A stretch of 64,000 nucleotides of DNA from a virus (lineage: Duplodnaviria > Caudoviricetes): positions 1 to 64,000 of IMG/VR virus record IMGVR_UViG_3300046528_000120; one strand, written 5' to 3'. The position numbers were made by a program, and so were the translations under genes. Shown here in pieces: positions 369-62,600 of this stretch. Each line of letters opens with the position of its first letter. Within the stretch, counting starts at the first letter, position 1. Under the pieces are notes generated by a model, which made no database searches, was not told the origin of the DNA, and saw nothing but the letters and a program-made list of their open reading frames with translations.

Positions 369-2018
369 ATGCGCCCCGCGATTCTGTCCGGGGCGATGGC
401 AATCCCGCTGGAGCATGTCGATGTGCCCAGCATGACCAAGACCCTCACGGCGAAGCACATGCCGCTGGGGGCCGAGGTCGCAACCTTGGTTCAGGCGTAC
501 CAGATCGCCGAGGGCTACATCCGCGTGCCCCGGCAGTTTGGCCTGGACTATTGCCACCGCAAGAACATCCCTTTCGAGAACCACACCTCCGGTGGCTATG
601 AGGTGGCGTTCCCGCGCATCGCCACGCCGCGAGACTATCAGGTCGCGCCGCTGGCCGAGATCGTGGAGAACTTCGACAACTTCTTCGACTTCATCTTCCG
701 CGCCCACACCGGCTGGGGCAAGACCGCTGGTGCCCTCATTGTCGCCGGCCAGCTCGGCACAACCACGCTGGTGATCGTCGACCAGGACAACCTGAAAGAG
801 CAATGGCTGGAAGCGCTCGACAAGCATTGCGGCATGACCCTGGCTAACGGCCATGTCGGCTTGGTGCAGGGCGACCGCTGTGACTACGAAGACAAGAGCG
901 TGGTCATCGCCATGGTGCAGACGCTATCGCAGCGCCAGTACGAACAGGCCTTCTACGACTACTTCGGCTTCGTGATCTTCGACGAGGTTCATACGGTCGG
1001 CGCACCCACGTTTTCCGTGGTATTACTGGACTTCCCGGCGATGTACCGCCTCGGTGTATCCGCTACCCCCAAGCGCAAGGACGCGCTGCAAAAACTGCTG
1101 GATTACAGCCTTGGCAAAGTGCGGGTTGCCGCAGACAAGGAGCACGAATGGTCGGCCGTGTACGTGCGCACCCGCGAGACGGTCTACTCGTGGTACGGCA
1201 ATGTCTCCAAGATGGTCGGTCGCATTGTCAACGAAGTGACCGAAGACCCGATCCATAATCTCGGCGTCGCCCAGGATGCCTTAGACCTGTACGAGACCGG
1301 TCGAGATGGGTTAATATTGTCGGACCGCATCGAGCAGTTGAAGCACCTGATTTCCTTGCTGTACTACCTCGGCGCAGACCCCGAACAGCTCGGCCTGTAT
1401 GCGGGCTACAGTTTGAACTACCGCTATGCGAAAGACGCCAAACCGGCGCGCCGCCCGAACGACTTGGCTATCCATGACGAGACCGGGAAGGCTGAGTACA
1501 CCCCTGTTAAATTGCAATTGATTTCAAAGCGGATGCCGACGAAAGAACTAGCGCGAATCAAGATCAGCGCCGGCATGCTCTTCGGCACCTATGGGAAGTG
1601 CGGCAAAGGCTTCGATGAACCCCGACTCCTGTTCGGCATCGACGCTTCGCCGCGCAGTGAAGTTGAACAAATTCATGGTCGTATTCTGCGAGACCGCACC
1701 GGCAAGATGCCGATCTGGGTGACGACCCGCTTTGTGAACAGCTACCGCTTGCTGCATGGTTTTGCCCAGCGCATCGCCGGCTACCTGAAGAGCAACGGGC
1801 GTATCTACGAATGGACCGAAGATGGAGAATTACTGGAATGCCACGAGAACGAGGTGATAGCCGACGCCCGCGCGCGCAGTCGCGAGCTGAGGGAGTGCCA
1901 GATCGAAACACGATCAGACGGGCTGTATATGCTTCAGACGAAGGCCAGCGCGAGACGCAGCGAGAGGCAGCGCGTGCTAGAAGCCGTCGAGAAAATCCAC
2001 TCCCGCAATCGCGGTTGA
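369..2018 (+). CDS. Superfamily 2 (DExH) DNA helicase
   Basis: Q-motif PRDYQ, Walker A AHTGWGKT, Walker B DEVH, motif III SAT, motif VI EQIHGRILR. Confidence 0.9.
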   Translation: MRPAILSGAMAIPLEHVDVPSMTKTLTAKHMPLGAEVATLVQAYQIAEGYIRVPRQFGLDYCHRKNIPFENHTSGGYEVAFPRIATPRDYQVAPLAEIVENFDNFFDFIFRAHTGWGKTAGALIVAGQLGTTTLVIVDQDNLKEQWLEALDKHCGMTLANGHVGLVQGDRCDYEDKSVVIAMVQTLSQRQYEQAFYDYFGFVIFDEVHTVGAPTFSVVLLDFPAMYRLGVSATPKRKDALQKLLDYSLGKVRVAADKEHEWSAVYVRTRETVYSWYGNVSKMVGRIVNEVTEDPIHNLGVAQDALDLYETGRDGLILSDRIEQLKHLISLLYYLGADPEQLGLYAGYSLNYRYAKDAKPARRPNDLAIHDETGKAEYTPVKLQLISKRMPTKELARIKISAGMLFGTYGKCGKGFDEPRLLFGIDASPRSEVEQIHGRILRDRTGKMPIWVTTRFVNSYRLLHGFAQRIAGYLKSNGRIYEWTEDGELLECHENEVIADARARSRELRECQIETRSDGLYMLQTKASARRSERQRVLEAVEKIHSRNRG

Positions 2019-2380
2019 GCCATGGCGTACTCGCGCGCGGAACTGAACGCGAGCTGGTAGCCCCTGGCCGGAGCCGAGCGCGTACCATGGAAAGCTATAC
2101 AGTCCCGGAAGCCGCGCAGGCCCTGGGGCGGTCGCTTTCCAACTTCCGCCGATGGCTGGAGAACGAGATCATCCCGGCCCCGGTCCTGTCCGATACCGGG
2201 CGCTCGTACGCCTGCTATTGCGCCGGGGAGTTGGAGATCATCGCCGAAGAGCTGCGCGAGCATGAACGCAATTTCGTCAGCCTGTGCGCTTCGCACGTCG
2301 ATACGATCTTGCGCATCAGCCAGCGCATCCACGGCTTCCGTGCTACCGAATTTGAACAAGGACACACGAGGACGAGATGA
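1838..2380 (+). CDS. HTH (MerR/Xis-like) DNA-binding protein; start uncertain (1838 or 2087)
   Basis: YTVPEAAQALGRSLSNFRRWLENEIIPAP is an HTH signature; GGAG precedes ATG 1838. Confidence 0.65.
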   Translation: MPRERGDSRRPRAQSRAEGVPDRNTIRRAVYASDEGQRETQREAARARSRRENPLPQSRLSHGVLARGTERELVAPGRSRARTMESYTVPEAAQALGRSLSNFRRWLENEIIPAPVLSDTGRSYACYCAGELEIIAEELREHERNFVSLCASHVDTILRISQRIHGFRATEFEQGHTRTR

Positions 2381-4507: not shown

Positions 4508-4700
4508 ACACAAACAGCAGGTTACCCCGGTCAAGGCCAGCTATACCTGCGACAAATGCGGTCTGGGCGAGATGCGACACAACCCGCCCAAGGTCAGCGT
4601 ATGGCCGTGCGAGCCGGGTGCGCCGCACAAGTGCACCAACCCGGATTGCAATCAATTGCAAGACCTGCCAACCGTCTACCCGCACATCCGCTATGAGTGA
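4500..4700 (+). CDS. Small Zn-ribbon protein
   Basis: CDKC…HKCTNPDC; overlaps both neighbours in operon fashion. Confidence 0.6.
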   Translation: MPEHKQQVTPVKASYTCDKCGLGEMRHNPPKVSVWPCEPGAPHKCTNPDCNQLQDLPTVYPHIRYE

Positions 4701-5070: not shown

Positions 5071-6011
5071 ACGTACGCCGCAACCCACGCACCCCGGTGG
5101 TACGCAAGCTCGCCGCCGCCGTCCAGACCACGGCGCTGCCGCAAATTGCGATCAAAATTCCACGTAACGCCAAGGTTGAATGCCCGACAGACGAGCACCT
5201 GATCGGCGACATCCTGAAGGCAACTCCGCGCCTGCGCCGGCCGCCGCGCCGTGATGGCTACATGCACGTCTCCGACCTGATCGGTAAGGGCAAGTGCTCG
5301 CGCAAGATCGCCATTGCCGCCAAGTACGGCACCCCGGTGCGGCCGAGCCGGCTGTCGATCTTCGACCGCGTCGTCTACGCCATCGGCGACGCCATCCATG
5401 ACACCATCAAGAAGATCGCCACCGAGGGCGCGCCTGATCGTGTCTGGGGTAAATGGAAATGCCAGTGCGGCCACCTCTACCACGAAGAGCCGTGCTTGCA
5501 ATCCGAGATCGACCCAGAGGACATCTGCGAGCTGTGCCACACCGGTTCGGTGTACTACCAGGAAGTCTCCATCTTCAATGATGAATACAACATCGTGGGC
5601 AACCCCGACTTGTTGCTATACCTTTCCGAAGTCGACGCATTCCATGTGACTGAATTGAAATCAATTGCACATGAGGCCTGGGCCGAGTTGGTCCGCCCCT
5701 TACCCGAGCACGTCTTGCAAGTCATCTTCTATTGGTTCCTGATGGCAATGGCCGGCTACCGCCTGACCGACCGCATCTCGGTCGTGTATATCACCAAGGG
5801 CTACCAGTTCAAGGGCGACGCCCATAAGGAATTCATGCTCGACCCGACCAAGGAGCTGCACCGCCTCTTGCCGTACCTGGAAGACGCGCGCGCCGCCAAG
5901 CTCTCGGCCACTGAGGAACGCTACCCGGCCCGCAAGCTGTGCAGCAATGAGTTCTCGACCCTCGCCAAGAAGTGCGAAGTCTGCACAACCTGTTTCGCTC
6001 TCCCAGGATAA
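5067..6011 (+). CDS. Cas4/RecB-like PD-(D/E)XK exonuclease with Fe-S cysteines
   Basis: HVSDL…CSRK, GDAIHD, GNPD, ELKS, HVLQVIFY, C-terminal C…CEVC…C. Confidence 0.8.
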   Translation: MNVRRNPRTPVVRKLAAAVQTTALPQIAIKIPRNAKVECPTDEHLIGDILKATPRLRRPPRRDGYMHVSDLIGKGKCSRKIAIAAKYGTPVRPSRLSIFDRVVYAIGDAIHDTIKKIATEGAPDRVWGKWKCQCGHLYHEEPCLQSEIDPEDICELCHTGSVYYQEVSIFNDEYNIVGNPDLLLYLSEVDAFHVTELKSIAHEAWAELVRPLPEHVLQVIFYWFLMAMAGYRLTDRISVVYITKGYQFKGDAHKEFMLDPTKELHRLLPYLEDARAAKLSATEERYPARKLCSNEFSTLAKKCEVCTTCFALPG

Positions 6012-6013
6012 GC

Positions 6014-6691
6014 ATGCGTGTTCTCCGCACCCCGCCGGCCCCGCGCCGGCCCGCCCGCATCATCCGCGCCGCGCCAGTCGCCCAGGTCCGCGTGCTCGGT
6101 ATTGATGCAAGTCTAAGTTCGACCGGCTACGCCTACCGCTACCGTGGCGCCGTAGTCACAGGCTCGATCCCTACTAAGAAGATGTCGGGAATGGCGCGCC
6201 TGGAGCATGTCCGTTCTATGCTGGAGCAGATTGCCGACCGTTGCCAACCAACCTTTATTGTTTTGGAGGACTACGCCAAGGGTAAAGGCGGCCTGGGGCG
6301 CACGTTCGACATCGGCGAACTAGGCGGCATCATCAAACATTATTTCTTCCTGCGCGGAATTGATGTTATGCTTGTCTCACCGACGACGTTGAAGATGGCA
6401 ATCACAGGGCGTGGCAATGCCGACGCCGCCCAGGCCGTCGCGGGCAGGAAGACCAAAGTAAAAGACAAAACCAAACCGGAGATGCGCGCCGCGCTGCGGA
6501 ACACGTTCGGCATCGTCACCGACCAGGGCGACGAAGCGGACGCCGCTGGCCTCATGCTACTTGGCGAGATACGCCAGAGCGCCGGCACCGTTCCGCGCTC
6601 GGTTCAGTCCAAGCTGCGGCTTCACTCTTTACGCGATTGCGTTATTATTCAGTCGTCGCAACGAACTTTGAAATTGATTGCAGCGAGATAG
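6014..6691 (+). CDS. RuvC-like Holliday junction resolvase
   Basis: VLGIDASLSSTG, VLED, GELGG, PTTLKMAITGRGNA, DEADA. Confidence 0.85.
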   Translation: MRVLRTPPAPRRPARIIRAAPVAQVRVLGIDASLSSTGYAYRYRGAVVTGSIPTKKMSGMARLEHVRSMLEQIADRCQPTFIVLEDYAKGKGGLGRTFDIGELGGIIKHYFFLRGIDVMLVSPTTLKMAITGRGNADAAQAVAGRKTKVKDKTKPEMRAALRNTFGIVTDQGDEADAAGLMLLGEIRQSAGTVPRSVQSKLRLHSLRDCVIIQSSQRTLKLIAAR

Positions 6692-6793: not shown

Positions 6794-8161
6794 ATGGCAA
6801 CCGCAAACAAAGCAGCCCCGAAAGCAGCAGCAAAGACCACCGCAACCAAGCCGGCCGCAAAAGCTGCACCGGCAGCAAAAACAGCTCCGGCAGCTAAAGC
6901 CGCCCCAGCCGCTAAGCCCGCAGCAAAAGCTGCTCCGGCCCCGGCAGCAAAGCCGGCCGCGAAGCCCGCCGCGAAAGCCGCACCGAAAGCCGCCGCCGAG
7001 CCGGCCGTGCCCGATACCCTGGACGTTGGCGTCGTCGTCCTCTTCAACGGCTACGATGCCGAGACCCCGGAGGCCGAGCGCCTGATCCCGGACGGCCACC
7101 GCGCCGAAATCCTCGAAGTGGTCCCGGACGAGAACCCGGAAAACACCAGCTACGTCATCCGCGTGCCGAACCCCGACTTCAACCCGGGAGTGGCCGAAGA
7201 CGACGCCACCAACCCGGCCGAAATCGAAACCTCGGCATTCGGCTTCGAGCTGACCATCGACGGAGACCAGACCCCGGTCAACGCCGGCGCCGCCCCGGTC
7301 GAGACCCCGGCCGCTGAGCCGGTCAAGAACGGCCGCAAGAAAGTCGCCGCTGCCAAGACCACCGCAGTCGAGACGCAGGAACAGCCGGCCAGCGATGAAC
7401 TGCCGGAACTGGCGCAGGAAGACGAAAACGTCCTCGCCCTCGTCGCCGAAGCCGAGCAAGTCGAAGGCGGTCTGGTCGGTATCGCCCAGGGCCTGGAACT
7501 GGACATCGAAACCAAGAACTTCCAGCTCGGCGGCGTCCTGTACCACATCAAGCGCGACGGCTCCTACAAGGAACTGGACGAGCGCTATGCGGAAGCCAAG
7601 GGCTTCGATGCCTTCGTCGCTGACCACTTCGGCTTCTCGTACCGCAAGGCGATGAACCTGATCGACATCTACGTCGCCTTCAACCAGCTCGGCATCGAAG
7701 ACGCCGGCAACGTGGTCGCCGAGATCGGCTGGACCAAGGCCTCGAAGCTCGCCGTTGCGATGGACGACGAGAACGCCCTGGAACTGATCGAACTGGCCCG
7801 CAACAACACCGTCGAAGGCCTGACCGATGCGATCAAGTCGGCCAGCGTCGAAGTCGGCGGCACGCCGGGCGAGAAGAAAACCCGCGTCACCATGAAGTTC
7901 CGCTTCTGGGAAGACGAAGGCAAGGCCCTGGAAGACACCATCAAGGAAGTCCAGGAAGCCCAGGGCCTCAAGACCCCGGACGAAGCGTTCGCCTTCATCG
8001 TGACCGAGTTCAAGATGGCCCAGGGCGGCGAAGCCCCGGTCACCGAAGCCCCGGCCCAGGTCGCCCCGGCAACCCGCGCTGGCGCCGCCCGCCCGGCAGC
8101 GAAAGCAGCAGCGAAGCCGGCAGCGCGTCCGGCACGTCAAGCCGCGACCGCCGCCGCCTAA
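6794..8161 (+). CDS. DNA-binding protein with histone H1-like PAAK tails and a DUF3102-like helical domain
   Basis: N- and C-terminal (K/P)AAK repeats; central LGGVLYHIK…GFDAFVADHFGFSYRKAMNLIDIY; strongly biased codon use. Confidence 0.75.
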   Translation: MATANKAAPKAAAKTTATKPAAKAAPAAKTAPAAKAAPAAKPAAKAAPAPAAKPAAKPAAKAAPKAAAEPAVPDTLDVGVVVLFNGYDAETPEAERLIPDGHRAEILEVVPDENPENTSYVIRVPNPDFNPGVAEDDATNPAEIETSAFGFELTIDGDQTPVNAGAAPVETPAAEPVKNGRKKVAAAKTTAVETQEQPASDELPELAQEDENVLALVAEAEQVEGGLVGIAQGLELDIETKNFQLGGVLYHIKRDGSYKELDERYAEAKGFDAFVADHFGFSYRKAMNLIDIYVAFNQLGIEDAGNVVAEIGWTKASKLAVAMDDENALELIELARNNTVEGLTDAIKSASVEVGGTPGEKKTRVTMKFRFWEDEGKALEDTIKEVQEAQGLKTPDEAFAFIVTEFKMAQGGEAPVTEAPAQVAPATRAGAARPAAKAAAKPAARPARQAATAAA

Positions 8162-8239: not shown

Positions 8240-9001
8240 ATGGCAACCAGTGCCCGTACCCCACATACCACGCGCGCCCCGGCGCGCTCTGCAATCAATC
8301 GCAACGCTGCTGCCGCTGCGGTCGCATCGACCGTGACCCCGCCAGACTGGGCGCGCCGTCGCCTTGAAATCCAGTATCTCGCCATCGACGACATCGTGCC
8401 GTACGAATGGAACCCGCGCGACAATGCCGAAGCGGTCGCCGCCGTCGCCAACTCGATCCGCCTGACCGAAGGCTTTGGTATGCCTATCGTCGTGGACGCC
8501 GATAACGTCATCATCGCCGGCCATACCCGCGTCGAGGCCGCGAAAGTCCTGGGCCTCCTGGAAGTCCCGGTGGTCCGCCTTGACCACCTCAGCCCCGAAG
8601 CCGTCGCCGCCTTCCGTATCGTCGACAACAAGGTGGCCGAGCAAGCCCGGTGGGACTTCGACATGCTCGCGTCCGAACTCGGCAAGCTGCGCGATAGCGG
8701 CATCGAGTTCACCGATTACGGCTTCAGCCAAGGCGAGCTGGATTGCATGTCGCAGATCGTTGCCGAAGATTGCCTGTCCGTTACCCAGTTGACCCCGGTC
8801 GCTGAGGAAGCCACCGCCGCCCACGTCGCCGCCCAGGGCACGCGCGCCCCGACCCGTACCCGCATTGTGGTCGGTGAGATGGTGCAATTCGTCGACGCCC
8901 CGGTCTACCGGAGCTGGATGAACGGTATCCGTGAGCTGTGCAACTTCGACGAGGCCGCGATCAACGCCGAACTGCGCCGCCGCCTCGGCATTCCAGGGTA
9001 A
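8240..9001 (+). CDS. ParB/Srx N-terminal domain protein
   Basis: IVPYEWNPR…GFGMPIVVD…IIAGHTRVEAA…AFRIVDNK…WDFDML; AGGAG RBS. Confidence 0.88.
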   Translation: MATSARTPHTTRAPARSAINRNAAAAAVASTVTPPDWARRRLEIQYLAIDDIVPYEWNPRDNAEAVAAVANSIRLTEGFGMPIVVDADNVIIAGHTRVEAAKVLGLLEVPVVRLDHLSPEAVAAFRIVDNKVAEQARWDFDMLASELGKLRDSGIEFTDYGFSQGELDCMSQIVAEDCLSVTQLTPVAEEATAAHVAAQGTRAPTRTRIVVGEMVQFVDAPVYRSWMNGIRELCNFDEAAINAELRRRLGIPG

Positions 9002-9005: not shown

Positions 9006-9230
9006 ATGTTCCGCCTATTCGCCCTCTCGGTGCTGCGCTTGCCCTACCTCTTCCTGCTGTGCCCGATTATCTTCGCGCTCCGCAGGATCGGTGCCATGTG
9101 CATCACCGTCGAGGCCTGGGCGCACCGCACGCATGACAAGGTCCAGTCCCACGCCATGCGCTTCATCGACCGCGCCCAAGCTGATCTCAAACTCCTGAAG
9201 GAAAAGAGCAATGCGCACCGTACGCCGTAA
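9006..9230 (+). CDS. Small hydrophobic hypothetical protein
   Basis: Fills the gap between the ParB genes; hydrophobic N-terminus. Confidence 0.45.
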   Translation: MFRLFALSVLRLPYLFLLCPIIFALRRIGAMCITVEAWAHRTHDKVQSHAMRFIDRAQADLKLLKEKSNAHRTP

Positions 9231-10755
9231 CCCGCGAGCCGCCGCGCCCGCTGCAACCGGTATCCAGATGGTGGATACCTACAGCCTCACCCCGGACAAG
9301 ACCAACCCCCGAAAGCCGGACCCGGCCCGCCTGGGCTTGCTGCGTCTCTCGATTGCAAAGCTAGGCTTCTTAATGCCGGTATTTGCGGCGAAGTCGACCG
9401 GACTTCTGCTGTCAGGTCACCAGCGTCAGACCGTCTCGAAGGAATTGGAATTGCCGCAAATTCCGGTGATGTACGTGGACATCAAGGACGATGACATTGC
9501 CGGCGTCAACATCCTGTTCAACCGCACCACCAACGACTTCGGCGCGTTCGACACTGGCTCGGATGCCAAGAACAAACTCGACATCGAAGCGGTGATCGCA
9601 GCGGCTGAGGAATTGCCGGATGCGGACCCGGACAATCCTTTTGCAATCAATTGCAAGATGGAGACGATTGCACCGATCCTGGCCGCGAACAGCGATGCCT
9701 TCAACGACAAGGCCGCCAGCCAAGCCCAGGCGATCCTGCGGATGGGTATCAAGATTCCGGCCGTGGTCTCGAAGTCAGGCGTGATCGTCAACGGCGTCCA
9801 CCGTTTGTTCGGCGCAGCCGGCGCCGGCATGACCGAGTGGCCTATCGTCCGCGTGCCGGATCAGATCGCCAGCGTCGCGACCAACTTCCTGAACTACCTG
9901 TCGATGGACTTCCACGTCGACGACGACTTCAAGGCGCTGATTCGTCACTCGGCCTACCGCCGCCCGCAGAACAACCGGGGATCGCTCGGTAAGTCGTATC
10001 GGTTCTGGGCGAATGGTGAGCGCACCCTGATGGACCGTGACAGCTACGGCCCCGAGTTCTTCGCCAAGTTCCGTGACATCCACGGCCAGACCATGCTCGA
10101 CTTCGGCGGCGGCCTGTGCCAGTCGGCTCCGTACCTGCGTGAGAAGGGCTTCGACGCCTACGACTTCGAGCCATTCCGCATCGACCCGGATAGCGGCGTG
10201 GGCGTGCCATCGCCGGACTACTCCAAGCGCAAGGCCAGCGAGTTTTTGCAATCAATTGCAAGCCCGAAGCTGAAGTTTGATTCGATCTTCCTGTCCTCGG
10301 TCCTCAACAGCGTGCCGTTCGCGGAAGACCGCCTCGTCGTCCTCGCCATCGTCCACGCGCTGTGCGGCCGGAACACCACGGTGTATGGCACCTGCCGCGA
10401 CATCTCCGACTTCAACTACGAATACGGTGGCATCCGCAAGGCCAACTACTTCACCTTCGATACGGAACCGGGCGTGCGCGTGGGCGACGTGATGCGCAAC
10501 CCGAAGATTCAGAAGTTCCACACCAAGGAAGAGGCCAAGGAGATGTTCCACCGTTTCTGGAAAGAAATTGATTTCTGGGACGGCGGGAATGTATTCTACT
10601 GGCGCCTGCGCGCACCGATGGGATTCCGCCCTGACGTGGTAAGCAAGGCGCTGGAGCTGGAGTTCGACTTGCCGTACGCCGATGGCACCACGATGGGGCT
10701 GGTGGCGGAAGCCAAGAAGGCATTCGGCCGGCGCCTGGGCGTGACCTTGAAATAG
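9211..10755 (+). CDS. Tandem ParB-like domains fused to a class I SAM-dependent methyltransferase-fold domain
   Basis: NPRK…GFLMP…LLSGHQR; a second ParB-like IPAVV…IVNGVHR; MTase motif I MLDFGGG, YDFEPF, FDSIFLSSVLNSVP. Confidence 0.85.
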   Translation: MRTVRRNPRAAAPAATGIQMVDTYSLTPDKTNPRKPDPARLGLLRLSIAKLGFLMPVFAAKSTGLLLSGHQRQTVSKELELPQIPVMYVDIKDDDIAGVNILFNRTTNDFGAFDTGSDAKNKLDIEAVIAAAEELPDADPDNPFAINCKMETIAPILAANSDAFNDKAASQAQAILRMGIKIPAVVSKSGVIVNGVHRLFGAAGAGMTEWPIVRVPDQIASVATNFLNYLSMDFHVDDDFKALIRHSAYRRPQNNRGSLGKSYRFWANGERTLMDRDSYGPEFFAKFRDIHGQTMLDFGGGLCQSAPYLREKGFDAYDFEPFRIDPDSGVGVPSPDYSKRKASEFLQSIASPKLKFDSIFLSSVLNSVPFAEDRLVVLAIVHALCGRNTTVYGTCRDISDFNYEYGGIRKANYFTFDTEPGVRVGDVMRNPKIQKFHTKEEAKEMFHRFWKEIDFWDGGNVFYWRLRAPMGFRPDVVSKALELEFDLPYADGTTMGLVAEAKKAFGRRLGVTLK

Positions 10756-11420: not shown

Positions 11421-11436
11421 TTGCAATCAATTTCAA

Positions 11437-13261: not shown

Positions 13262-13282
13262 ATTGAAATTGATTGCAACGAC

Positions 13283-16244: not shown

Positions 16245-16257
16245 AATTGATTGCAAC

Positions 16258-16825: not shown

Positions 16826-16947
16826 GATATGCGCATGCGCGCGCCTTCGCCATTAGCCGGACCCTTCCCAGAACTGTCGCACCGCGCCGCTCGTGTCGCC
16901 CTATCATGGATGCTCTTGCAATCAATTTCACCTCGAAAGGGAAAATC

Positions 16948-43899: not shown

Positions 43900-44279
43900 A
43901 CGGCCGGCTCCCGAACACGCCGGCCGGCTGGCATGCCTTCATCGACGCCTGGGCACAGTACCATAACGTCCAGATGAGCGAGCAGGCGCGCGGCGCGCTG
44001 TGCAACGCCTTCGGCAACCTCACCGAGGCCGAGATGGACGCAATCCAGGCGCACCCGAACTACGAGCGCATCACCGTCGAACTGCCGGCGCACGGCACCG
44101 TCCTGGCGTCTACGGTCACCTACCGCCCGCAGCCAGCCGCCGAGCCGTTGCAATCAACTGCAAAGCCGGTCGCCGCCCGACCGACCAGGACGCCGCCACG
44201 CACCGCGCCGAGCGTTCCCGCCCCTACGGGAACCCGGCCACCTGCTCGCATCGTCCGTCGCACTGTCCCGATAAAATAA
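43896..44279 (+). CDS. Hypothetical protein
   Basis: ATGA coupling. Confidence 0.6.
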   Translation: MNGRLPNTPAGWHAFIDAWAQYHNVQMSEQARGALCNAFGNLTEAEMDAIQAHPNYERITVELPAHGTVLASTVTYRPQPAAEPLQSTAKPVAARPTRTPPRTAPSVPAPTGTRPPARIVRRTVPIK

Positions 44280-48437: not shown

Positions 48438-48497
48438 ATGCTGGGAGGGATCACAGGCCTGAAATTGCAAGTGATTGCAAAATGCCAGCGGCACTAG
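48438..48497 (+). pseudogene. Orphaned original 5' end of the dNMP kinase gene (MLGGITGLK…)
   Basis: ATG directly follows the upstream TAA; the first 9 codons parallel the kinase start MLVALTGLK at 49126. Confidence 0.6.
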
Positions 48498-49132: not shown

Positions 49133-49818
49133 TTGCTTTGACAGGATTAAAGGGAGTAGGCAAGGATGAAGCGGTGAACCATCTGGTATCGCTCGGCTTC
49201 ACCAAACTCGCGTTCGGGGACGCGATTTACAAGGAACTTGCAATCAATTTCAAGGTGCCGGAAGAATTCCTGCGCATGCGCGAGGTCAAGGAGACGCCGC
49301 ACCCCCGGCTCGCCTTGGCCTACTGCCAAGACCATGAATTCGTGCGCTATATTGTCGCCAGCGCCATGACACTGCCGGCCGGCTGCGACCACGGCATCCG
49401 CGCGCTGTCACGCGACGAGCTGACCAAACCGCGCACCAGTACCTGGCTCACCCAGCAATGGGCTACCCAGTACCGCCGCCGGCACTTCAGCGACGACTAC
49501 TGGACCCGCATCGTGGTCGACCAGATCAGGGCGCTGCCGCGCGGCACCAACGTCGTCTTGAGCGACTTGCGCCACTTCCCGGTTGAAATGGCAGCGTTCG
49601 ACGCTTACCGCGACACCCACACGCACCGCGCCGGTAGCCTGACCATCGCGCCGGCCATGGGCATCCTGGAGCTGACCCGCGACGGCAGCATCAATACCGG
49701 GCATGACTCGGATCGCGGCCTGCCGCGCGATCTCATCGACAAGACGTACGTCAACAACGGCACCCTGACCCAGCTCTACGCTGCCCTCGAACTGTTCATC
49801 ACCCTGGAGATCAAGTAA
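49126..49818 (+). CDS. Deoxynucleoside monophosphate kinase
   Basis: P-loop TGLKGVGKD, AFGDAIY, VVLSDLRH, H.SD.GL, YVNNGT. Confidence 0.85.
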   Translation: MLVALTGLKGVGKDEAVNHLVSLGFTKLAFGDAIYKELAINFKVPEEFLRMREVKETPHPRLALAYCQDHEFVRYIVASAMTLPAGCDHGIRALSRDELTKPRTSTWLTQQWATQYRRRHFSDDYWTRIVVDQIRALPRGTNVVLSDLRHFPVEMAAFDAYRDTHTHRAGSLTIAPAMGILELTRDGSINTGHDSDRGLPRDLIDKTYVNNGTLTQLYAALELFITLEIK

Positions 49819-50498: not shown

Positions 50499-50521
50499 CC
50501 TGGATTGCAATTGATTGCAAC

Positions 50522-50960: not shown

Positions 50961-52618
50961 CAACTAGCAATCGGCCGACGCGTATTCGCCGGGCCGCACA
51001 ACAGCGTGGAGTAGCCGTGCAACAGCAGCTCGCCGCGCATACGACCGTCATCCAGGTCGAGCGTGCCAGCGCCAGTGCCAGCCGCCAGATCGAGTACCTG
51101 GATGAATTCCAGCTCGGCGGCGGCTTCGGCCAACTCATCATTCCGCCACCGTACAACGTCGAGGGCCTGTTCCGGTATATCTCCGAATCGAACATGCTCA
51201 AGCAGTGCATCCGCTCGTACGTGGTCAACACGGCCGGCACCGGCTGGGAAGTGGTCCCGCTCAACAAGAAGGTTACGGTAGACGAGGACGAGCGCGACGA
51301 GCTGGAAGCCATCTGCGATCTGGCCAACTCCGAAGAGAGCCTGTCTACCGTGGTCAAGAAGGCCATCGCTCACCGCGAAGCAGTCGGCTTCGGCTTCATC
51401 GAAGTCATCCGTGACATCAGCGGCCGTCCGACCCTGCTGCGCCACGCATCCTCGCTCCACATGCGCCTCGGCCACAAGAGCCAGACCGAAGTCCTGGTCA
51501 AGTTCGATCTGCCGCGCGGCGCCCGCTCCGCTACCGTGAAGGAGTTCCGCAAGTTCCGCCGCTTCTTGCAATTGATTGCAGGCCGCATGCGCTACTTCAA
51601 GGAGTTCGGCGACCCGCGCGACCTCAACGCCGATACCGGCCTGTTCGAGGATGAGCAGGGCTACCAGCCGGGCAACTCGGCGACCGAGATCATCCACCTG
51701 AAGCGCGACTCCAACGAGCCGTATGGCGAACCGCAGTGGATCAACCAACTGCCGAACATCATCGGTTCGCGCGAGGCCGAAGAAGTGAACATGCGCTACT
51801 TCGAGGACAACACGGTGCCGGCCGGTATGCTGACGGTAGCCGGTGGCCGCCTGACGGCGCAGTCGCACCAGAACCTGACCAACCTCCTTGCGGGCGGCAT
51901 CGGCAACAAGAACCAGTCGAAGATCGTCCTGATCGAAGCGGTCGGTGAGCAGGATAGCCTGGACGCCAAGGGCACCCCGATCCAGATGAAGGTCGAGCGT
52001 CTGGCCGACCAGCGCCCCAGCGACGGCCTGTTCAAAGATTACGACGAAGCCAATCAGGCCAAGGTCCGTTCCAGCTTCCGCCTGCCGTCGGTCGCGGTCG
52101 GCATGGCGAACGAGCACAACTTCGCCACCGCCAACGTCGCCATGTTTGCTGCCGAGTCGCAGGTATTCGCCCCCGAGCGCAACGAGACCGATGAGCTGCT
52201 GAACAACACCCTGGTACGGTCTCGCGCCGGCATGCGAATGCGCACGGTGAAGCTGGCCAGCCGCACGCCGCCGATCACCTCGCCCGAAGGCCAGATCAAG
52301 ACCATGACCGCGCTGAACGTGATGGGCGCCCTGACCCCGCGTAAGGCCCAGAAGCTGGCCAACACCCTGCTGCAAATCGAGATCGAGGAATACCCGAAGA
52401 AGGGCGAGGCAGACTACGAGGACTGGATGGACAAGCCGATGGCGCTGAACATGAGCAAAGGCGCTGCCGCCGACGAAGGCGTCGACGCCGGCAACCCACC
52501 CCCGGCCGATGGTAGCGCGCCTGCAACGCACGCTGGGCAGTCCGTGAAAGACCCTGCGACCAAGGCGCTCGAAGCCAGCGGCAATATCAACACTCAACCG
52601 AAGCATGGGACGGAATAA
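50957..52618 (+). CDS. Portal protein (PBSX-like)
   Basis: GFGFIEVIRD, EIIHLK…YGEP.W, RYFEDNTVPAGMLTVAGG, DGLF..Y…VRSSFRLP…NFATA. Confidence 0.9.
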   Translation: MTTSNRPTRIRRAAQQRGVAVQQQLAAHTTVIQVERASASASRQIEYLDEFQLGGGFGQLIIPPPYNVEGLFRYISESNMLKQCIRSYVVNTAGTGWEVVPLNKKVTVDEDERDELEAICDLANSEESLSTVVKKAIAHREAVGFGFIEVIRDISGRPTLLRHASSLHMRLGHKSQTEVLVKFDLPRGARSATVKEFRKFRRFLQLIAGRMRYFKEFGDPRDLNADTGLFEDEQGYQPGNSATEIIHLKRDSNEPYGEPQWINQLPNIIGSREAEEVNMRYFEDNTVPAGMLTVAGGRLTAQSHQNLTNLLAGGIGNKNQSKIVLIEAVGEQDSLDAKGTPIQMKVERLADQRPSDGLFKDYDEANQAKVRSSFRLPSVAVGMANEHNFATANVAMFAAESQVFAPERNETDELLNNTLVRSRAGMRMRTVKLASRTPPITSPEGQIKTMTALNVMGALTPRKAQKLANTLLQIEIEEYPKKGEADYEDWMDKPMALNMSKGAAADEGVDAGNPPPADGSAPATHAGQSVKDPATKALEASGNINTQPKHGTE

Positions 52619-53224: not shown

Positions 53225-54655
53225 ATGACCTTTGACCAAACCAAACACGTTCGCGTGCGCCGAAGCGCCGGTCAAGCCGCTGCCGGCAATCTGGTGACCA
53301 TCGGCACCCCGAAGGCACTGACCCTGTGCGACGTGCCGGCCAACCAGCGCCCGTTCCCGGTGATCCGTAGCGATGAAGGTGCGCCGGCCGCCAAGCCGCC
53401 TCGCATCGTCCGCGCCAAGCGTAGCGTGAACCCGGTCCTGGGCCTGACTTTCCCGGCCGGCACCACCGAAGACGACGCCGTCGCCCTACTGGCCACCTTC
53501 GAGATGTCCGACTACACCCTGATGGTCGACGAGCAAGGCGCCTACACCGCTATCCGCTCCGACTTGCAATCAATTGCAACCGAGACCACCGACATCAAGA
53601 TCAACAAGGAAGGTGTCGTGGCCCGCGTCGATGCCAGCCAGTACAAGATCACCCGCGCCGACTCGACCGACAACCTGCGGCTGGTTGCGCTCGAATTCGA
53701 TGCCAAACGTTTCGACGCCGACGCAATTTCTTCGTGGATTGCTGAAAATAAAGTTGACAGCGCGCAAGATGCTGTCGAAAATGCGGACAGCTCATCGCTG
53801 ACGGTCAAACGTCACGATGTCGCAGAAGGAACCGAGGTACGAAAGGTGCAGTTGGAAGACGGCGTGACCGCAGTCATCGCCCGTTCCGATGTCGCAGATG
53901 TTCCGGCCGGCTTCGCCGTTGCCGTGAACGAAACGATGTACGGCAACTGGGGCTGGGGCCATCTGGACTTCAACGCCAGTATGGCCGATGTCGAGTTCTG
54001 CCGCGTAATGGACGACGCTAACTATCGTCTGATGCGCGTGCTGAACAGCATCATGCTGGATAGCCAACTGCCCTTGGAGCAGCGCAAGGCCCTGGTGGAC
54101 CGCGCACTGTCCCAGTACGGTGACTTTGTGAAAAACGTAATCGACGCACTTCCGCGTCAAGTGACACTGCTGGTGACCCGCGCCGCAGTCAACAAGGAGA
54201 ATGAAACGATGGCAGGTAAAGACGAAAACGGCGGCGCGCAAGTTCAACAGCCGCTGACCCGCGAAGACGTGGCCCAGATTGTGCAAGACGGTATCACCGC
54301 CGCCTTCGCCGCCCGTTCCGAAGCCCAAGCCGCCGCGCCGGCCGCTGCTGCCGCTACCACGGCTGCTACCACCGAAGCCGCCCGCGACGACGCTGCTTCA
54401 TCCGCTGCTACCGCCGCTGCTCCGGCCGCGACCGAGACCGTGACCCGCGCCGACATCGGTGCCGCCGTCGCGGAAGCCCTGAAGCCGTTCGGCGAGCAAC
54501 TGGCTGCTATCCAGAACACCGTGGTCGTGCGCAGCGATTCCGGCGACCGCACCGTGGCTGTGACCGAACAGAAGGAAGTGAAGCGCGGCGATACCGCAGT
54601 CTTCGGCGGCCTGCTGGCTGGCGCCCGCGCCATGCGCAGCGGCGGCGTCCAGTAA
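53225..54655 (+). CDS. Capsid scaffold / head assembly protein
   Basis: Lies between protease and capsid; N-terminal LTLCDVPAN; Ala-rich helical C-terminus. Confidence 0.65.
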   Translation: MTFDQTKHVRVRRSAGQAAAGNLVTIGTPKALTLCDVPANQRPFPVIRSDEGAPAAKPPRIVRAKRSVNPVLGLTFPAGTTEDDAVALLATFEMSDYTLMVDEQGAYTAIRSDLQSIATETTDIKINKEGVVARVDASQYKITRADSTDNLRLVALEFDAKRFDADAISSWIAENKVDSAQDAVENADSSSLTVKRHDVAEGTEVRKVQLEDGVTAVIARSDVADVPAGFAVAVNETMYGNWGWGHLDFNASMADVEFCRVMDDANYRLMRVLNSIMLDSQLPLEQRKALVDRALSQYGDFVKNVIDALPRQVTLLVTRAAVNKENETMAGKDENGGAQVQQPLTREDVAQIVQDGITAAFAARSEAQAAAPAAAAATTAATTEAARDDAASSAATAAAPAATETVTRADIGAAVAEALKPFGEQLAAIQNTVVVRSDSGDRTVAVTEQKEVKRGDTAVFGGLLAGARAMRSGGVQ

Positions 54656-54722
54656 CACAGCCGTACCCCAGATTTATTGCAATCAATTTCAATAGCAGCA
54701 AACCCTTAACACTGGAGAGTAA

Positions 54723-55734: not shown

Positions 55735-55772
55735 CACATTGCAATCAATTTCAAAATAACTTAGGAAGCATC

Positions 55773-57282: not shown

Positions 57283-57770
57283 TGCTCAACCAAGACCCAG
57301 ATCAGATCACGCGCATGGAAGATGACCTGCGCGACAAGATTCAAGTTGCAATCAATTTCAAACCCGAACTGAATGCCGGCGTGTACGGCGTCTTCAGCAT
57401 CGACGACCTCGAATCCAAGATGCAAGACGATCTCGGCGGTGGCATCGGTGTCGGCGTCCAGTTCGTCTACACCCAGGCGGCCGACCTCCAGGCCCGCCCC
57501 GGCGCACAGAATGCCCGCTACCTGCAATTCATGTTCCAGGTCATCCTCGCGGTGCCGTGTGGCATGGAGGCGGTCGAACGCGGGCTGGCAACCAAGCTGC
57601 TCGGCGTCACGCGCCAAGCCATCTTCGGCGAACCACTGAAGGACGACAAGGTGAACCGGGCATGGGACTTCGTGCGTGAGCAAGCAGAACCTAGTGCGTC
57701 AACCGCGACGATGCTGTACTATTCGCAACTCTGGCAAGTTGCCCTGCCGCAAGTAGCGCAGCGCGCCTAA
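57279..57770 (+). CDS. Tail terminator-like protein
   Basis: Position before the tail tube; beta-rich C-terminus. Confidence 0.6.
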   Translation: MMLNQDPDQITRMEDDLRDKIQVAINFKPELNAGVYGVFSIDDLESKMQDDLGGGIGVGVQFVYTQAADLQARPGAQNARYLQFMFQVILAVPCGMEAVERGLATKLLGVTRQAIFGEPLKDDKVNRAWDFVREQAEPSASTATMLYYSQLWQVALPQVAQRA

Positions 57771-58638: not shown

Positions 58639-58662
58639 ATTGCAATTGATTTCAATAAGGTA

Positions 58663-58833: not shown

Positions 58834-59385
58834 ATGGACCAACCAAACAACATCATTGCTTCGATTGACGCCCTGTTCGGCGGAAGCTCCAGTAGCTTCA
58901 CCCTGCGCAGTGGCGCCAACGTCGAATTCCAGAAGGTGAACCTGCCGCGCATCGCGGTCGTGACCACCATGCTCGACAAGCTGGCGACGACGCCGCTGGC
59001 CGACAAGTTCCGCGCATTCTTGCAATCAATTGCAAAGGAACAGGGTGCACTGCTGGCCGGCGGCCAGTCGCCCGATGCAATTGATTTCAACAAGGGCGTG
59101 GCCCTGGAGAAGGCCTTCGCGAATCACTCGCTGCTACTCCAGGTGTTCAGCACCGTCGCCGAGACCATCCCCGAATTCGTCGCTGCCCTGTCGACCATCG
59201 GCGTGAAGGACTACGAAGCGCTGGAGCTGGATGAACAACTGATACTGGCCGCTGGCGTCGTCGCGGTGAACTACGCTTTTTTTACCCAGAGCTTGCCCCC
59301 CATTATCGCGACCGTGATGAAAAACGTCGGCGCCAAGAAACAGGCAAGCCTGGGAAGCACGGCAAAGAATCAAAGCAAAACCTAG
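58834..59385 (+). CDS. Tail assembly chaperone (gpG-like)
   Basis: Lies between tail tube and tape measure; contains the slippery T TTT TTT. Confidence 0.8.
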   Translation: MDQPNNIIASIDALFGGSSSSFTLRSGANVEFQKVNLPRIAVVTTMLDKLATTPLADKFRAFLQSIAKEQGALLAGGQSPDAIDFNKGVALEKAFANHSLLLQVFSTVAETIPEFVAALSTIGVKDYEALELDEQLILAAGVVAVNYAFFTQSLPPIIATVMKNVGAKKQASLGSTAKNQSKT

Positions 59386-59624: not shown

Positions 59625-59627
59625 CCT

Positions 59628-62600
59628 GTGGCGGATTCCACTCTTGGCGTAAATGTAATCGGGCGTGACGATCTCACGCCCCTCCTGAACAACCTCGAAT
59701 CCCGCATCATTCGCTTTGTGGGATTCGTTTCTTCCGCAATCGCCGGGGTCAAGGTCGCGGCCTTCCCGGTCTCCGCTACGGCCGACTTCCAGCGCGAGCT
59801 GGCGAACGTCCAGAAAACCACCAACTTCCTCGACGACCAGATGCGCGGCCTCGCCGGCAGTCTGAAAGAGCTGTCGTTGCGCATGAACGTGTCGGTGGTC
59901 GACCTCACCAAGATCGCTGCCGCTGCCGGCCAACAGGGTCTGGGTGGCGCTGGCGTGGCGGGCGTCGTCAAGTTCACCGAGTCCGTCGCCCGTATGGCCT
60001 CGGTCCTGGACATCAGCGCCGAAGACGCCGGCACCAACATCGGCAAGCTGCTGAACATCTTCCACCTCAGCGTGAACGAGACCGAGAAGATTTCGTCGGC
60101 CTTCAACGAGGTCTCCAACAACTCGACCGCGAGCGGTGCGCAACTGCTGGACATCGTGCGCCGCATCGGCGACGCCGCAGGTACGATCAACCTCCAGAAA
60201 TCGCTGGGCCTCGCTGCTACCGGTATCGACCTCGGCCTGTCGCCTGAAGTGGTCGGCACCTCGTTCCAGTCGATCTTCATCCAGATGCGCTCGAAGGCGT
60301 CGCAGTTCTCCAAGCTGCTCGGGGTCGACGTTAAGACCTGGATGGACACGCTGAAGAACGATGGCATCACGGCGCTGACCCAGTACCTGTCGGCGCTGCG
60401 CAAGCTGGATAGTCAGAGCCAAGCCGAGACCATCAACAAGCTGTCGGGCCAGGGCCGTATCGCCGGCCTGATGAACAAGCTGATACAGGATACGACCAAC
60501 TCGGTCCTGAACAAGAACCTGGGCAACGCCGATGCCGGCTTCGGCTCAGGCACCTCGGCACTGAAGGAGCAGCAGCGCGTGCTGGGCACCTTCAACGAGC
60601 AGGCCAAGATTCTGAAGAACTCCATCTTCACCCTGGCCACCGAGACCGGCGATCAACTGGTGCCGCAGCTCACCGCCTACACCGCGAAGCTCTCCGAAGC
60701 CCTGCAAGCGCCGGGCCTGAAGTCGTTCATGCAGGCCATCGGCCAGTCCTTCCTCGACCTTGTGAAATCAATTGCAAGCGTCACGAGCTGGGTAGCGGGA
60801 CTGAACATCAACTGGGAAAACTTCATCGGCACCGCCAAGGTTCTCGTGAGCCTGCGTCTGGTCGAGATGTTCGGCGGCCTCGCCACGCGCCTGCCCGGCG
60901 TCTCCGCGTTATTCGCCACCATGGCGACCTCGGCCAATGCCGCCGCTGGCGCGATGGGTCAAGCCGCTACCGCCCAGGTCAACGGTCTGACCCGCATGAC
61001 CACGGCCGTGCGCGAGTACGCCGCTGCTCGCGCCCAGCAAGCTGCCGCTGACGATGCCGCCGCGCGTGCACAACGGGTCGCGCAGTCGCGGGAAGCCGAC
61101 TATTTGCGACAAGCCCGCGTGGATGTCGCTGCCAACCGCCTCGCCCAAACGGCCGGGGCCAACACCGCCGCCGCTGCCACAAATAACGCGAATGTCCGCG
61201 CCCAGGCCGCCGCCGCTGAAGCCAACGTGGTCAACACCCTGGCCCAGCGCCGCGCCCAGGCCGAAGCAGCCAGCCAAGCGCAGATCACGCAGATTCAGGC
61301 GAACTACCGTGGCCAGCGCCGGGTAGCACAGATCGCCGCGCGCGACGCTGAGATCGCCCAGGAAGAAGCCGCGCTGCGCCGCCGCCTCGCCGGCTACGAT
61401 GGCTACTACAACCGGCTCCTGGCCCAGACCCAGGCCAGCAACTTGCAATTGATTGCAGCGGCCGAAGCGAACGAACTGCGCCTGACCCAGGTTCAGCAGA
61501 CCGCAGAGCAACAGCGCCTCGCCTCCGCGCGCGGGGCCAGTGTGCGCCGCATCCAGATGGAAGAGTCGGATGGTGCCGTTCGCGCCGCTCAGGCCCGCGC
61601 ACGCGCCGCCGCAGCCGCTACGGAAGAGGCACGCGCCCGCGTGTTCAACCTCGGGGCCGTCCTCGGTGCGGTTGCCGCTGGTCTCGGCCGCCTGCTCAGC
61701 CTCGCGTCGGGCGTAGTCCTGTGGGGCACCCTGATCTACACCGCCCTGGATGCGCTCGGCATCGTCGACAAGCTCGGCCCGATGTTCCAGAACTTCACCG
61801 ACAAGCTGGGCCTGACCTCGGCCAAGTCTCGAGAAGCCGCTGAGAAGACCAAGCTGCTCAACGAAGAGCTGGAGAAGCAGAAGAATCACGTTGCCGCCCT
61901 CGCCGCAGAATATGACAAGCTGAAGGACAAGCAGACCGGTGGCCTGTCGACGGCCGGCGTCAAGGCACTCCAGGGCAACCTGACCAGCCAGAACTTCGAG
62001 CAACGCCAGCGCGCCGTGGGTGACCTCGGTGGCGCCCTGGTCGCGTCCGACAACGAAGTGGCGACGGCGAAGAAGCCGATCCCCTCGGCGCAGTTCACCA
62101 AGCTGAAGAAAGACCTGGACGAGGCCACCGCCTCCTACAAGAAGCTGAACGACGCCTTCCGCGATAATCAGACCATCGAAGGCAAGCGCGTCTACAGCGG
62201 CGAGGTGCGCGCGGCTAAGGACAAGGTAGACGAGCTGACCAAGGCCTACGCCCAGGCCCAGCAGACCGCCGAGAACTTCAGCAAGACGACTGCCGCCAGC
62301 GGTGCCGTGGTCGCGGAGCAGGCCGCCCAGCGTCAGAAGGAACTCGCCGAACAAGTTGCCGGCCTGTTCACTGACAAGTCGGCTGACCTCTTCCAGCAAT
62401 TCGTGGTGCCGATCAGCAACGCGCAGAAGGCAGTCGACGTGCTGAACAAGTCGCGCTCCGATCTGATGCAGAAGCAGATCACGCTGACCGACCCGGCTGA
62501 CATCAAGAAGTCAAACGCAACCCTCGATCAGCTCAACCTGGACATCGCGGCGGCGCAGAAGAACCTGACCGACCTCCAGAACAAGTTTAAAGAGACTCAG

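Follow-up and report, generated by a model that had tools for sequence, protein, structure and literature searches.

Noc acts on about 70 sites, which are scattered over the chromosome and build a nucleoprotein array, and Noc and parS sites are palindromes of 14-16 bp read by HTH dimers. KorB binds 12 OB sites on the IncP plasmid RK2, has its own CTPase N-domain and works together with KorA and with IncC, a ParA. In phages, the stoperators of Cluster A mycobacteriophages lack symmetry, have a strict orientation relative to transcription and belong to an immunity repressor (PMC4351075). From Cluster O mycobacteriophages a 17-bp repeat was described, which consists of a 7-bp inverted repeat with a 3-bp spacer and is present in 34 copies in Corndog; its authors predicted that a dimer binds it and assigned no function, and these phages possess a ParB-like domain protein without a ParA (Cresawn et al. 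2015, PMC4351075). Certain ParB-fold proteins of phages that lack a DNA-binding domain were found to activate DNA-modifying enzymes, in that case thymine dioxygenases, and sequence-specific loading sites were not reported (bioRxiv 10.1101/2025.08.14.668559).

Here, a window of 64,000 nt, which is the whole stretch of DNA analysed, and the phage genome of 103,099 bp to which it belongs were investigated for a dispersed, AT-rich 16-bp word in an otherwise GC-rich genome (Table 1). The original prediction, made from the letters of the window, had described two hexamers around an asymmetric 4-bp core; the repeated site was recovered, and is more simply described as a 7-bp inverted repeat (TTGCAAT / ATTGCAA) flanking a 2-bp centre, CA or, reversed, TG. 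The degenerate pattern of that prediction matched exactly 27 times in the window versus 0.00 expected from dinucleotide shuffles. With up to three mismatches to the consensus 50 distinct window sites were counted, 34 with the CA core on the + strand and 16 reversed, close to the 49 (33 and 16) predicted, and with up to two mismatches 48 (33 and 15). The whole genome holds 73 copies, and at up to two mismatches 68 sites were observed versus 2.1 on average and at most 6 in codon-preserving shuffles, in which synonymous codons were permuted inside each gene. Orientation was 47:21 among these 68 sites and 182:106 across seven genomes, and was only weakly tied to transcription. Beyond the 16 bp the flanks showed no conservation, half of the copies lie in frame in genes and positions are kept in relatives, on which grounds mobile repeats of the REP/MITE type were rejected.

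Table 1. Copies of the 16-bp word and genes of candidate reader proteins in the window (strand of a site: orientation of the CA core).
Positions	Strand	Feature	Context
1512..1527	-	site	1 mismatch; within SF2 helicase gene 396-2018; position common to relative L152
4019..4034	-	site	2 mismatches; start of gene 4019-4507
4646..4661	+	perfect site	within small ORF 4500-4700
5655..5670	+	site	2 mismatches; within exonuclease-like gene 5067-6011
6668..6683	-	site	2 mismatches; 3' end of RuvC-like gene 6014-6691; also in L152
8289..8304	+	site	2 mismatches; within ParB_N gene 8240-9001
9641..9656	+	perfect site	within ParB-methyltransferase gene; frame 1, AINC
10246..10261	+	perfect site	within ParB-methyltransferase gene
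11421..11436	+	site	immediately 3' of stop of 11013-11420
13263..13278	-	site	occupies gap between 12437-13261 and terminase large subunit start at 13283
16241..16256	-	site	overlaps thymidylate synthase gene stop; next ATG 1 nt on
16916..16931	+	site	2 mismatches; 10 nt inside ORF 16906-17241; also in L152
18466..18481	+	perfect site	intergenic; start codon 19 nt on
19381..19396	+	site	intergenic; in loop of GC-rich stem, followed by T-rich run
22147..22162	+	site	overlaps stop of 21884-22150
22318..22333	+	site	intergenic; just 3' of TATAAT hexamer; start 21 nt on
24650..24665	+	site	2 mismatches, CG centre; end of gene 23798-24670
26515..26530	+	site	intergenic; adjoins ribosome-binding site; start 10 nt on
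27607..27622	-	site	2 mismatches; within gene 27009-27689
28285..28300	+	perfect site	intergenic; stop 1 nt earlier
29717..29732	+	site	intergenic; TATAGT hexamer overlaps; start 23 nt on
30254..30269	+	site	occupies stop-to-start gap (0 and 5 nt)
31890..31905	+	site	intergenic; stop 2 nt earlier, start 12 nt on
33401..33416	+	weak site	3 mismatches; non-coding stretch
33646..33661	+	site	intergenic; adjoins ribosome-binding site; start 9 nt on
34068..34083	+	site	2 mismatches; intergenic; start 15 nt on
34590..34605	-	weak site	3 mismatches; one hexamer in common with 34600 site
34600..34615	+	site	immediately 3' of stop of 34345-34599
34733..34748	-	site	intergenic; start 72 nt on
35336..35351	-	site	intergenic; followed by GC hairpin; start 61 nt on
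37298..37313	+	site	intergenic; start 14 nt on
38246..38261	+	perfect site	adjoins 12-bp-period iteron-like array; 0.8-kb non-coding region
40571..40586	+	perfect site	within gene 40193-40648, frame 0
41860..41875	-	site	within gene 41404-42156
43283..43298	+	site	within gene 43055-43423
44148..44163	+	site	within gene 43896-44279
45936..45951	+	perfect site	within gene 45219-46268
48465..48480	-	site	intergenic by own gene calls
49238..49253	+	site	within gene 49174-49818, frame 1
50505..50520	-	perfect site	followed by terminator hairpin (27 bp), then sigma-70-like promoter at 50548
51566..51581	-	site	within portal gene 51017-52618
53564..53579	+	perfect site	within gene 53225-54655
54677..54692	+	site	intergenic; major capsid gene 30 nt on
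55739..55754	+	site	intergenic; 3' of terminator-like hairpin; start 18 nt on
57346..57361	+	site	within gene 57279-57770, frame 1
58640..58655	-	site	immediately 3' of terminator; -35-like hexamer 7 bp downstream
59020..59035	+	perfect site	within gene 58771-59385
59075..59090	-	site	2 mismatches; within gene 58771-59385
60762..60777	+	site	2 mismatches; within tape measure gene
61443..61458	-	site	within tape measure gene
6794..8161	+	best candidate reader, 455 aa	phrog_17202, no Pfam family; Lys/Ala/Pro-rich tails
8240..9001	+	second candidate or possible partner	ParB N-terminal (CTPase-fold), methyltransferase-associated subfamily; no full DNA-binding domain evident
9211..10755	+	ParB_N-methyltransferase fusion	phrog_5475; conserved beside 6794-8161 and 8240-9001 genes in SM1-like clade
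2087..2380	+	third candidate reader, small protein	weak MerR/HTH_17-type match

Our own crude gene calls place 24 window sites within CDSs, three across a gene end and 23 between genes (about 23 and 26 at junctions had been predicted), and the largest site-free gap, 2,978 bp from 13263 to 16241, agrees with the stated limit of about 3 kb. Among the genes named as carrying sites, portal (51017-52618) and tape measure (59628 onwards) were matched by Pfam, as was the capsid, and the identity of the helicase was likewise confirmed; the three in-phase hexamers noticed at 34590-34615 are a genuine overlapping pair of sites. All three reading frames are indeed used, if unevenly, with 25 in-gene sites in frame 0, nine in frame 1 and one in frame 2 genome-wide. 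Sites occur on average about once per 1.5 kb and are spaced more evenly than random (CV 0.67 versus about 0.97-0.98, p about 2e-4). Intergenic DNA makes up about 11% of the genome and holds 49% of the sites, many of which just occupy the gap from a stop codon to the next ribosome-binding site, and the in-gene copies occupy the gaps left between intergenic ones, evening out the spacing in six genomes.

The frame TGCAA-N4-TTGCA was found to be common to a superfamily of siphoviruses of 80-110 kb and 38-62% GC, comprising Pseudomonas phage SM1, Stenotrophomonas DLP5, Aeromonas HJ05, Rhizobium L338C and uncultured phages. Identical or sister words occur in related phages from many hosts, and the range in GC implies that these hosts are very different. 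The word differs between close relatives. Positions are kept as well: besides those listed for L152, this relative shows a flipped centre at the place equivalent to the 11421 site, and two in-gene positions are common to SM1, each with SM1's own core, namely 9641, where FAINCK stands versus YANACK (core ANAC) in SM1, and 53564, where the orthologous place holds an SM1-type site in a different frame. In L338C the arms are kept and the two centre bases vary freely; most lineages have a flexible pyrimidine-purine step (CA, TG or CG) there without exception. In bacterial genomes the word shows no clustering, and the exact 16-mer yielded scattered single matches only in 185,579 species genomes. Selection on the DNA word, not on the protein, as originally proposed, is supported by the shuffle excess, by the LQSIA and LQLIA peptides which in-gene copies force onto unrelated proteins, by the filling of gaps and by the own-core sites of SM1 at shared positions.

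Since the word is placed so evenly and recurs, identical or as a sister word, in related phages of many hosts, the array is almost certainly where a conserved DNA-binding protein of these phages docks. Its most probable reader is the candidate encoded at 6794-8161, which was found in 8/8 genomes compared and is a predicted homodimer, whose conserved core (aa 195-410) was modelled as a ParB/KorB-like HTH domain with a ribbon-helix-helix-like C-terminus. In fold searches the DNA-binding domains of ParB, Spo0J and Noc rank top, the protein has no ParB_N match, and one of its residues (GWxK) tracks the inner half-site base. The 8240-9001 protein was modelled as a ParB N-domain accompanied by short helices, and the HTH-like domain belongs to the separate 6794-8161 protein; a ParB_N protein was present in 5/5 genomes tested. 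The gene of the third candidate is syntenic with the MerR-like regulators of relatives, between the helicase and RecA genes.

We consider it probable that the words are double-stranded docking sites for a phage-encoded, two-fold symmetric protein, likely that of 6794-8161, which would nucleate a chromosome-wide array. Selection would keep the words evenly spread for coverage of the whole chromosome and, where no intergenic gap is available, write them into coding sequence, mostly in the LQSIA frame. The dimeric reader, in this clade with histone-H1-like tails, would bind each site and start a nucleoprotein array comparable to those of Noc or KorB on dispersed sites, possibly helped by the neighbouring ParB_N proteins poor in DNA-binding domains; where a site lies 7 or 27 bp ahead of a late promoter or overlaps an early one, it would also modulate transcription. 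The even spacing in six genomes and a universal candidate reader of ParB/KorB-like predicted fold are consistent with sites at which a protein that coats or organises the genome would load.

It is rather doubtful that the sites serve mainly as operators through which a global regulator controls transcription, like KorB on RK2 or temperate phage repressor sites, with an even spread that follows gene density and in-gene copies as roadblocks or low-cost extras. Such a role would suit the intergenic enrichment, the five late promoters with sites 7, 10 or 27 bp upstream of their -35 hexamers (7 and 27 bp being on the same helix face), the -10-like hexamers touching sites 22318 and 29717 and a class of sites 55-95 bp ahead of start codons in several genomes. 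However, half of the sites lie in genes, far from promoters, many intergenic ones merely fill a gap, orientation follows transcription weakly, and a per-promoter operator does not predict that in-gene sites even out the spacing. The original rejection of a simple operator or polar stoperator is supported by the dyad symmetry, the 2:1 bias and the half of the sites inside genes, but underplayed a subset clearly tied to late promoters.

An unlikely elaboration of the docking-site reading is a 'split ParB' machine in which the dimer of 6794-8161, bearing only a DNA-binding domain, would mark the sites as loading stations and recruit the adjacent ParB CTPase-fold proteins, one of them fused to a methyltransferase; these would then slide a limited distance, the spacing of about 1.5 kb reflecting how far the clamp can travel, and would coat or modify the DNA, marking it as self or shielding it from host defences. 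Even spacing would then ensure coverage of the whole phage chromosome.

That the word works in mRNA, as a small hairpin for processing, stability or translation, is very improbable. All genes lie on the + strand, so that every copy is transcribed, many copies adjoin ribosome-binding sites, a group of sites ends 9-20 nt ahead of start codons in all genomes, and the perfect word can fold into a 6-bp stem with a 4-nt loop. Yet the central stem pair is changed one-sidedly in 31/68 sites (C with T in 22, A with G in 9) and by a compensating double change in 1/68; a single such change destabilised test folds, made with artificially added GC clamps, by about 6 kcal/mol, about a third of the copies are reversed and would form a different loop, Rfam gave no match, and the free centre of L338C is as expected of a protein dimer. 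A structured RNA element was therefore rejected.

Equally slight is the chance that the sites are parS-like centromeres bound by phage ParB-like proteins for inheritance of a plasmid prophage. For DLP5 and DLP3, lysogeny in phagemid form and two ParB-domain proteins were reported (PMC7326821), an Alcaligenes faecalis assembly contains a member of the family as a 100.5-kb contig, and ParB_N proteins are present throughout the genomes tested. But these belong to the methyltransferase-associated subfamily, the Samunavirus member UF_RH6 was described as lytic (PMC10281142), and partition would need far fewer than the thirty to seventy evenly spread sites. A ParA-type ATPase (PF13614, PF01656) was not found in G000, G001, G003, G005 and DLP5, with 14/14 control genomes matching, which argues against a canonical partition system. 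Membership in ParABS was rejected, as 73 sites are spread evenly over 103 kb instead of a few parS clustered near the origin or par operon; the parS analogy originally drawn stands for form only. Binding by a conserved host protein, or a restriction, nicking or packaging signal, for which the AT-rich word and its flexible centre might speak, is extremely unlikely, since phages of 38-62% GC share the word and close relatives differ in it, bacterial genomes hold only scattered single matches, nicks in both strands of a palindrome would sever the genome, and the sites have no tie to ends or terminase.

Compared with the known systems, the sites resemble those of Noc and ParB in being 16-bp palindromes with a candidate reader of similar predicted fold, but sequence similarity is undetectable, the candidate lacks a fused CTPase domain, site density per kb exceeds that of Noc about 40-fold, and nothing points to a role in membrane targeting or segregation. 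Like KorB operators they are palindromic and dispersed over the replicon, some beside promoters, here five late ones at distances of 7-27 bp, and others remote, inside genes; but about 70 sites occur here, on a phage, with an HTH-like protein without ParB N-domain and no ParA in the five genomes searched. Cluster A stoperators, too, are a short site repeated dozens of times across the genome of a phage and recognised by a single protein of that phage; membership was rejected because of the dyad symmetry (7-bp inverted repeat) and the merely 2:1 orientation bias here and over seven genomes. As regards ParB-fold activators, a short ParB_N protein and a ParB_N-methyltransferase fusion adjoin the candidate reader. 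The closest published analogue appears to be the unexplained repeat of Cluster O, which differs in word and spacer length and belongs to unrelated phages (actinobacterial host, about 70 kb), and whose description mentions no even spacing, no conservation in distant hosts, no change of word and protein together and no candidate for the reader (PMC4351075). The likeness, which is one in kind only, lies in a short dyad-symmetric inverted repeat with more than 30 copies per genome, situated between genes, near starts and inside genes, mostly off promoters, with a slight orientation preference of the centre and with positions kept among relatives.

The 16-bp dyad word repeated throughout this phage genome is genuine and under strong selection; its copies form an array of putative protein-docking sites, evenly spaced and conserved across a superfamily of large siphoviruses. 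The degenerate pattern of the original prediction, which had counted 49 copies, matched exactly 27 times in the window, where none was expected; at up to three mismatches 50 sites were found there (CA centre on the + strand in 34, reversed in 16) and 73 in the whole genome. As predicted, the window sites lie both inside and between genes, 24 in predicted CDSs, 23 in intergenic DNA and three straddling gene ends. Permutation of synonymous codons within each gene left a mean of 2.1 and a maximum of 6 sites at up to two mismatches in the whole genome, compared with 68 observed. The best description of the word is an inverted repeat of two 7-bp arms (TTGCAAT and ATTGCAA) flanking a two-base CA centre; it is 85-100% conserved at positions 1-16 except for the fourth base of each arm, which is C or, in 24% of arms, A. 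No conservation was found outside the 16 bp, and isolated half-sites did not exceed chance frequency. The asymmetric CA centre is almost invariant in the present phage and symmetric CG in close relatives, so that in the present phage and these CG-type relatives it is always a pyrimidine-purine step, which may be important for DNA bending. Of 288 sites pooled from seven genomes, 63% have the CA form on the coding strand, a bias not seen in the relative G005.

The phage record, of which the window covers the first 64 kb, comprises 103,099 bp with 127-bp direct terminal repeats, 61% GC and about 146 genes predicted with a simple gene caller of our own, all except one on the + strand. Judged by the terminase protein, its nearest isolates are the Pseudomonas Samunavirus phages (SM1, PaMx31, PA_L9 and others; 57% identity), followed at greater distance by Aeromonas phage HJ05, Rhizobium phage L338C and the Vibrio SIO-2-like phages; megablast with the terminase gene retrieved no close DNA relatives from the phage collection. 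One family member, L280, makes up the entire 100.5-kb contig JQCV01000009.1 of the Alcaligenes faecalis assembly GCA_000770015.1, a finding that fits a phage-plasmid or carrier state and suggests that one lineage has its hosts among the Alcaligenaceae. Stenotrophomonas phages DLP5 and DLP3 were reported to persist as phagemids (PMC7326821). In the relative L282 (48% GC) intein-type insertions were observed within positions 1-5787, in the DNA polymerase (Intein_splicing) and the SF2 helicase (Hom_end_hint), the latter being 866 aa long compared with about 540 aa.

That selection acts on the DNA word rather than on the protein, as had been proposed, was borne out by the peptides it imposes and by positions shared with the relatives L152 and SM1. 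Within genes the word is read in frame 0 in 25 of 35 cases, and LQSIA (nine times) and LQLIA (five times) recur in unrelated proteins, where fewer than 0.1 would be expected. L152, with about 72% nucleotide identity, matches the present genome at seven of 11 sites, including those in the helicase and ParB-methyltransferase genes, and two of the 11 in-gene sites mappable onto SM1 coincide with SM1 sites (calculated chance expectation about 0.1), both with SM1's own centre. At the site starting at 9641 the protein reads FAINCK in the present phage and YANACK in SM1, and the two middle residues therefore track the DNA word; the site at 53564 is retained in SM1 in a different reading frame.

Spacing proved more regular than random placement, for which a coefficient of variation (CV) of about 1 is expected: the CV of inter-site distances was 0.67 for the present phage, and five other genomes gave 0.46-0.63. 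When in-gene sites were re-dealt over coding DNA with the intergenic ones fixed, the CV rose to about 0.95 (p ≤ 0.003 in each of six genomes); in-gene copies therefore occupy the gaps between intergenic copies. Half of the sites fall into intergenic DNA, itself about 11% of the genome, and many intergenic gaps are hardly longer than a site plus the ribosome-binding site of the next gene, the site then lying 0-3 nt past the stop and 9-20 nt ahead of the start.

The word frame is conserved across the superfamily. An IMG/VR scan for the perfect 16-mer yielded many contigs of 90-103 kb with multiple copies; four of them, ranging from 38% to 62% GC and sharing 25-40% protein identity with the present phage only in a few replication, recombination and head genes, contain 13-50 copies of the same 14-mer, and the isolate DLP5 carries it 26 times. 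SM1 has 28 copies with the same outer TGCAA and TTGCA arms and spacing around an (A/G)CGC middle, TGCAAC-NN-GTTGCA occurs 23 times in HJ05 and 52 times in L338C, and the frame is found 30 times in RHph_Y1_11. Among closer uncultured relatives, CG replaces the CA centre in L280 and L283, and the arms are TGAAAT in L282 and L284 and TGCAGG in L285; copies in the Vibrio members are few or degenerate. Neither the 14-mer nor the repeat was described in the literature searched, including papers on DLP3/DLP5, Samunavirus and L338C.

A plausible reader of the word is the phrog_17202 protein, whose predicted core suggests a ParB/KorB fold. Its family is one of seven universal among eight genomes compared, the other six being primase, RecA/UvsX, SF2 helicase, exonuclease, AAA+ ATPase and DnaB. 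The protein had no Pfam match, an ESM-Atlas feature search returned only sub-threshold leads (DUF3102, 'ParB HTH'; scores 0.83-0.88), and a Foldseek search of the core against the PDB gave nothing at E 0.001, the top rows, Noc and ParB, being non-significant. The conserved core (aa 195-410) was modelled from 32 homologues with pLDDT 92.5, and the predicted homodimer passed its controls (ipSAE 0.81 versus 0.01 for the best control; contact agreement at least 94%; pLDDT at least 82), a mark that 20 of 30 pair-solved proteins attained, compared with one of 23 solved as single chains. One of its helices opens with an invariant GWxK motif. In eleven genomes the x is T and in one it is A, all with T as the inner arm base of their words; HJ05, L338C and L286, with inner base C, have S, as does SM1 with A/G, and L285 with G has W. 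SIO-2 is an exception to this correspondence, which involves few independent changes. The close homologue P0009 is of the GWSK type. Recognition-helix covariation gave no clean pattern of residues tracking C/A at half-site position 4 or the CA/CG centre. The protein shares a small N-terminal domain with its counterparts in SM1, HJ05 and L338C, with three tandem copies in HJ05, and the tails found in this clade should bind DNA non-specifically.

The ParB_N-domain protein, detected in five of five genomes searched and encoded in the SM1-like clade directly downstream of the phrog_17202 gene, is another possible reader given this presence. As sole reader it is disfavoured by its model, a ParB N-domain with short helices and no clear full DNA-binding domain, and by relatives that include ParB-methyltransferase fusions; phage ParB-fold proteins without a DNA-binding domain can activate DNA-modifying enzymes (bioRxiv 10.1101/2025.08.14.668559). 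The pre-terminase block to which it belongs, in conserved order in L152, L280, L282, L283 and L284, looks like a DNA-modification module. A ParA-type ATPase was absent from all five genomes searched, and the array and its candidate reader thus do not represent a canonical partition system, despite the DLP5/DLP3 phagemids and the L280 contig.

Docking of a protein such as the phrog_17202 product would bear on transcription at a subset of sites. At the late operon boundaries 58640 and 77948 a terminator is followed by the site, 7 bp and the -35 hexamer, and at 50505 and 73604 the site is followed by 27 bp with the terminator inside and then the -35 hexamer of the promoters at 50548 and 73647, respectively; with gaps of 7 and 27 bp the site faces the same side of the helix in both layouts. 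A weak site lies 10 bp upstream of a fifth promoter, and in the early region the sites at 22318 and 29717 touch -10-like hexamers. Part of the array is therefore very likely to modulate promoters in the manner of KorB, while the majority of sites lie far from promoters.

Coordinates of features in and around the array
Position	Feature	Observation
2087-2380	Small MerR-type HTH protein	Syntenic in most genomes, between helicase and RecA genes
4019-4507	YpsA/SLOG (DprA-like) family protein	In recombination module; start codon overlaps a motif copy
6794-8161 (+)	Candidate reader, phrog_17202	455 aa
6794-7370, 8030-8161	Tails of candidate reader	Long, Lys/Ala/Pro-rich, histone H1- or AlgP-like
8240-13261	Pre-terminase block	ParB_N protein, small ORF, ParB_N-methyltransferase fusion, class I SAM methyltransferase
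8240-9001	ParB_N protein	
9211-10755	ParB_N-methyltransferase fusion	phrog_5475
11013-11420	Candidate anti-CBASS/Thoeris nucleotide sponge	L152 homologue: weak Acb2_Tad1_hairpin (PF24729) match; L283: clear match at another location
11638-12372	Class I SAM methyltransferase	
19370-19420	Terminator-like hairpin with embedded site	GC-rich stem with site 19381 as its loop, then a T-rich run
38100-38520	Possible replication origin or regulatory array	Non-coding; lowest GC of window
38137-38243	Iteron-like cluster	About ten copies of a unit of 12-bp period, abutting site 38246
38439-38517	Second iteron-like cluster	

Action of the word as an RNA hairpin is unlikely: the central stem pair shows a one-sided change in 31 of 68 sites and a compensating double change in one, test folds with added GC clamps put the cost of such a change on one side at about 6 kcal/mol, one third of the sites are in reverse orientation, the centre bases vary freely in L338C, and an Rfam scan of the window, like a tRNA scan, gave no match. 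A host regulator site, considered along with the original prediction, did not hold either, as the 16-mer appears in bacterial genomes only in scattered single matches and is therefore not a host regulon element. Readings as a host-factor, Chi-like, nicking, primase or RuvC-consensus site were rejected, the word being palindromic, different between close relatives and unenriched in bacteria.

New in the present analysis are a word frame spanning a superfamily with cultivable members that infect Pseudomonas, Stenotrophomonas, Aeromonas and Rhizobium, certain of which are under consideration for therapy; a spacing more even than chance in each genome examined, with coding sequences adapted to carry the sites; a word that shifts between lineages, in step with a single residue of the universal phrog_17202 protein; and a concrete, testable candidate reader from phages amenable to laboratory culture. 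If true, this reading would provide a function for a conserved orphan family, might account for many orphan phage ParB-fold proteins and would reveal a chromosome-wide organising layer in phage genomes. Dispersed dyad repeats of lytic or phagemid phages have appeared in print essentially once before, without an explanation; this closest published analogue is the 17-bp repeat of the Cluster O phages.
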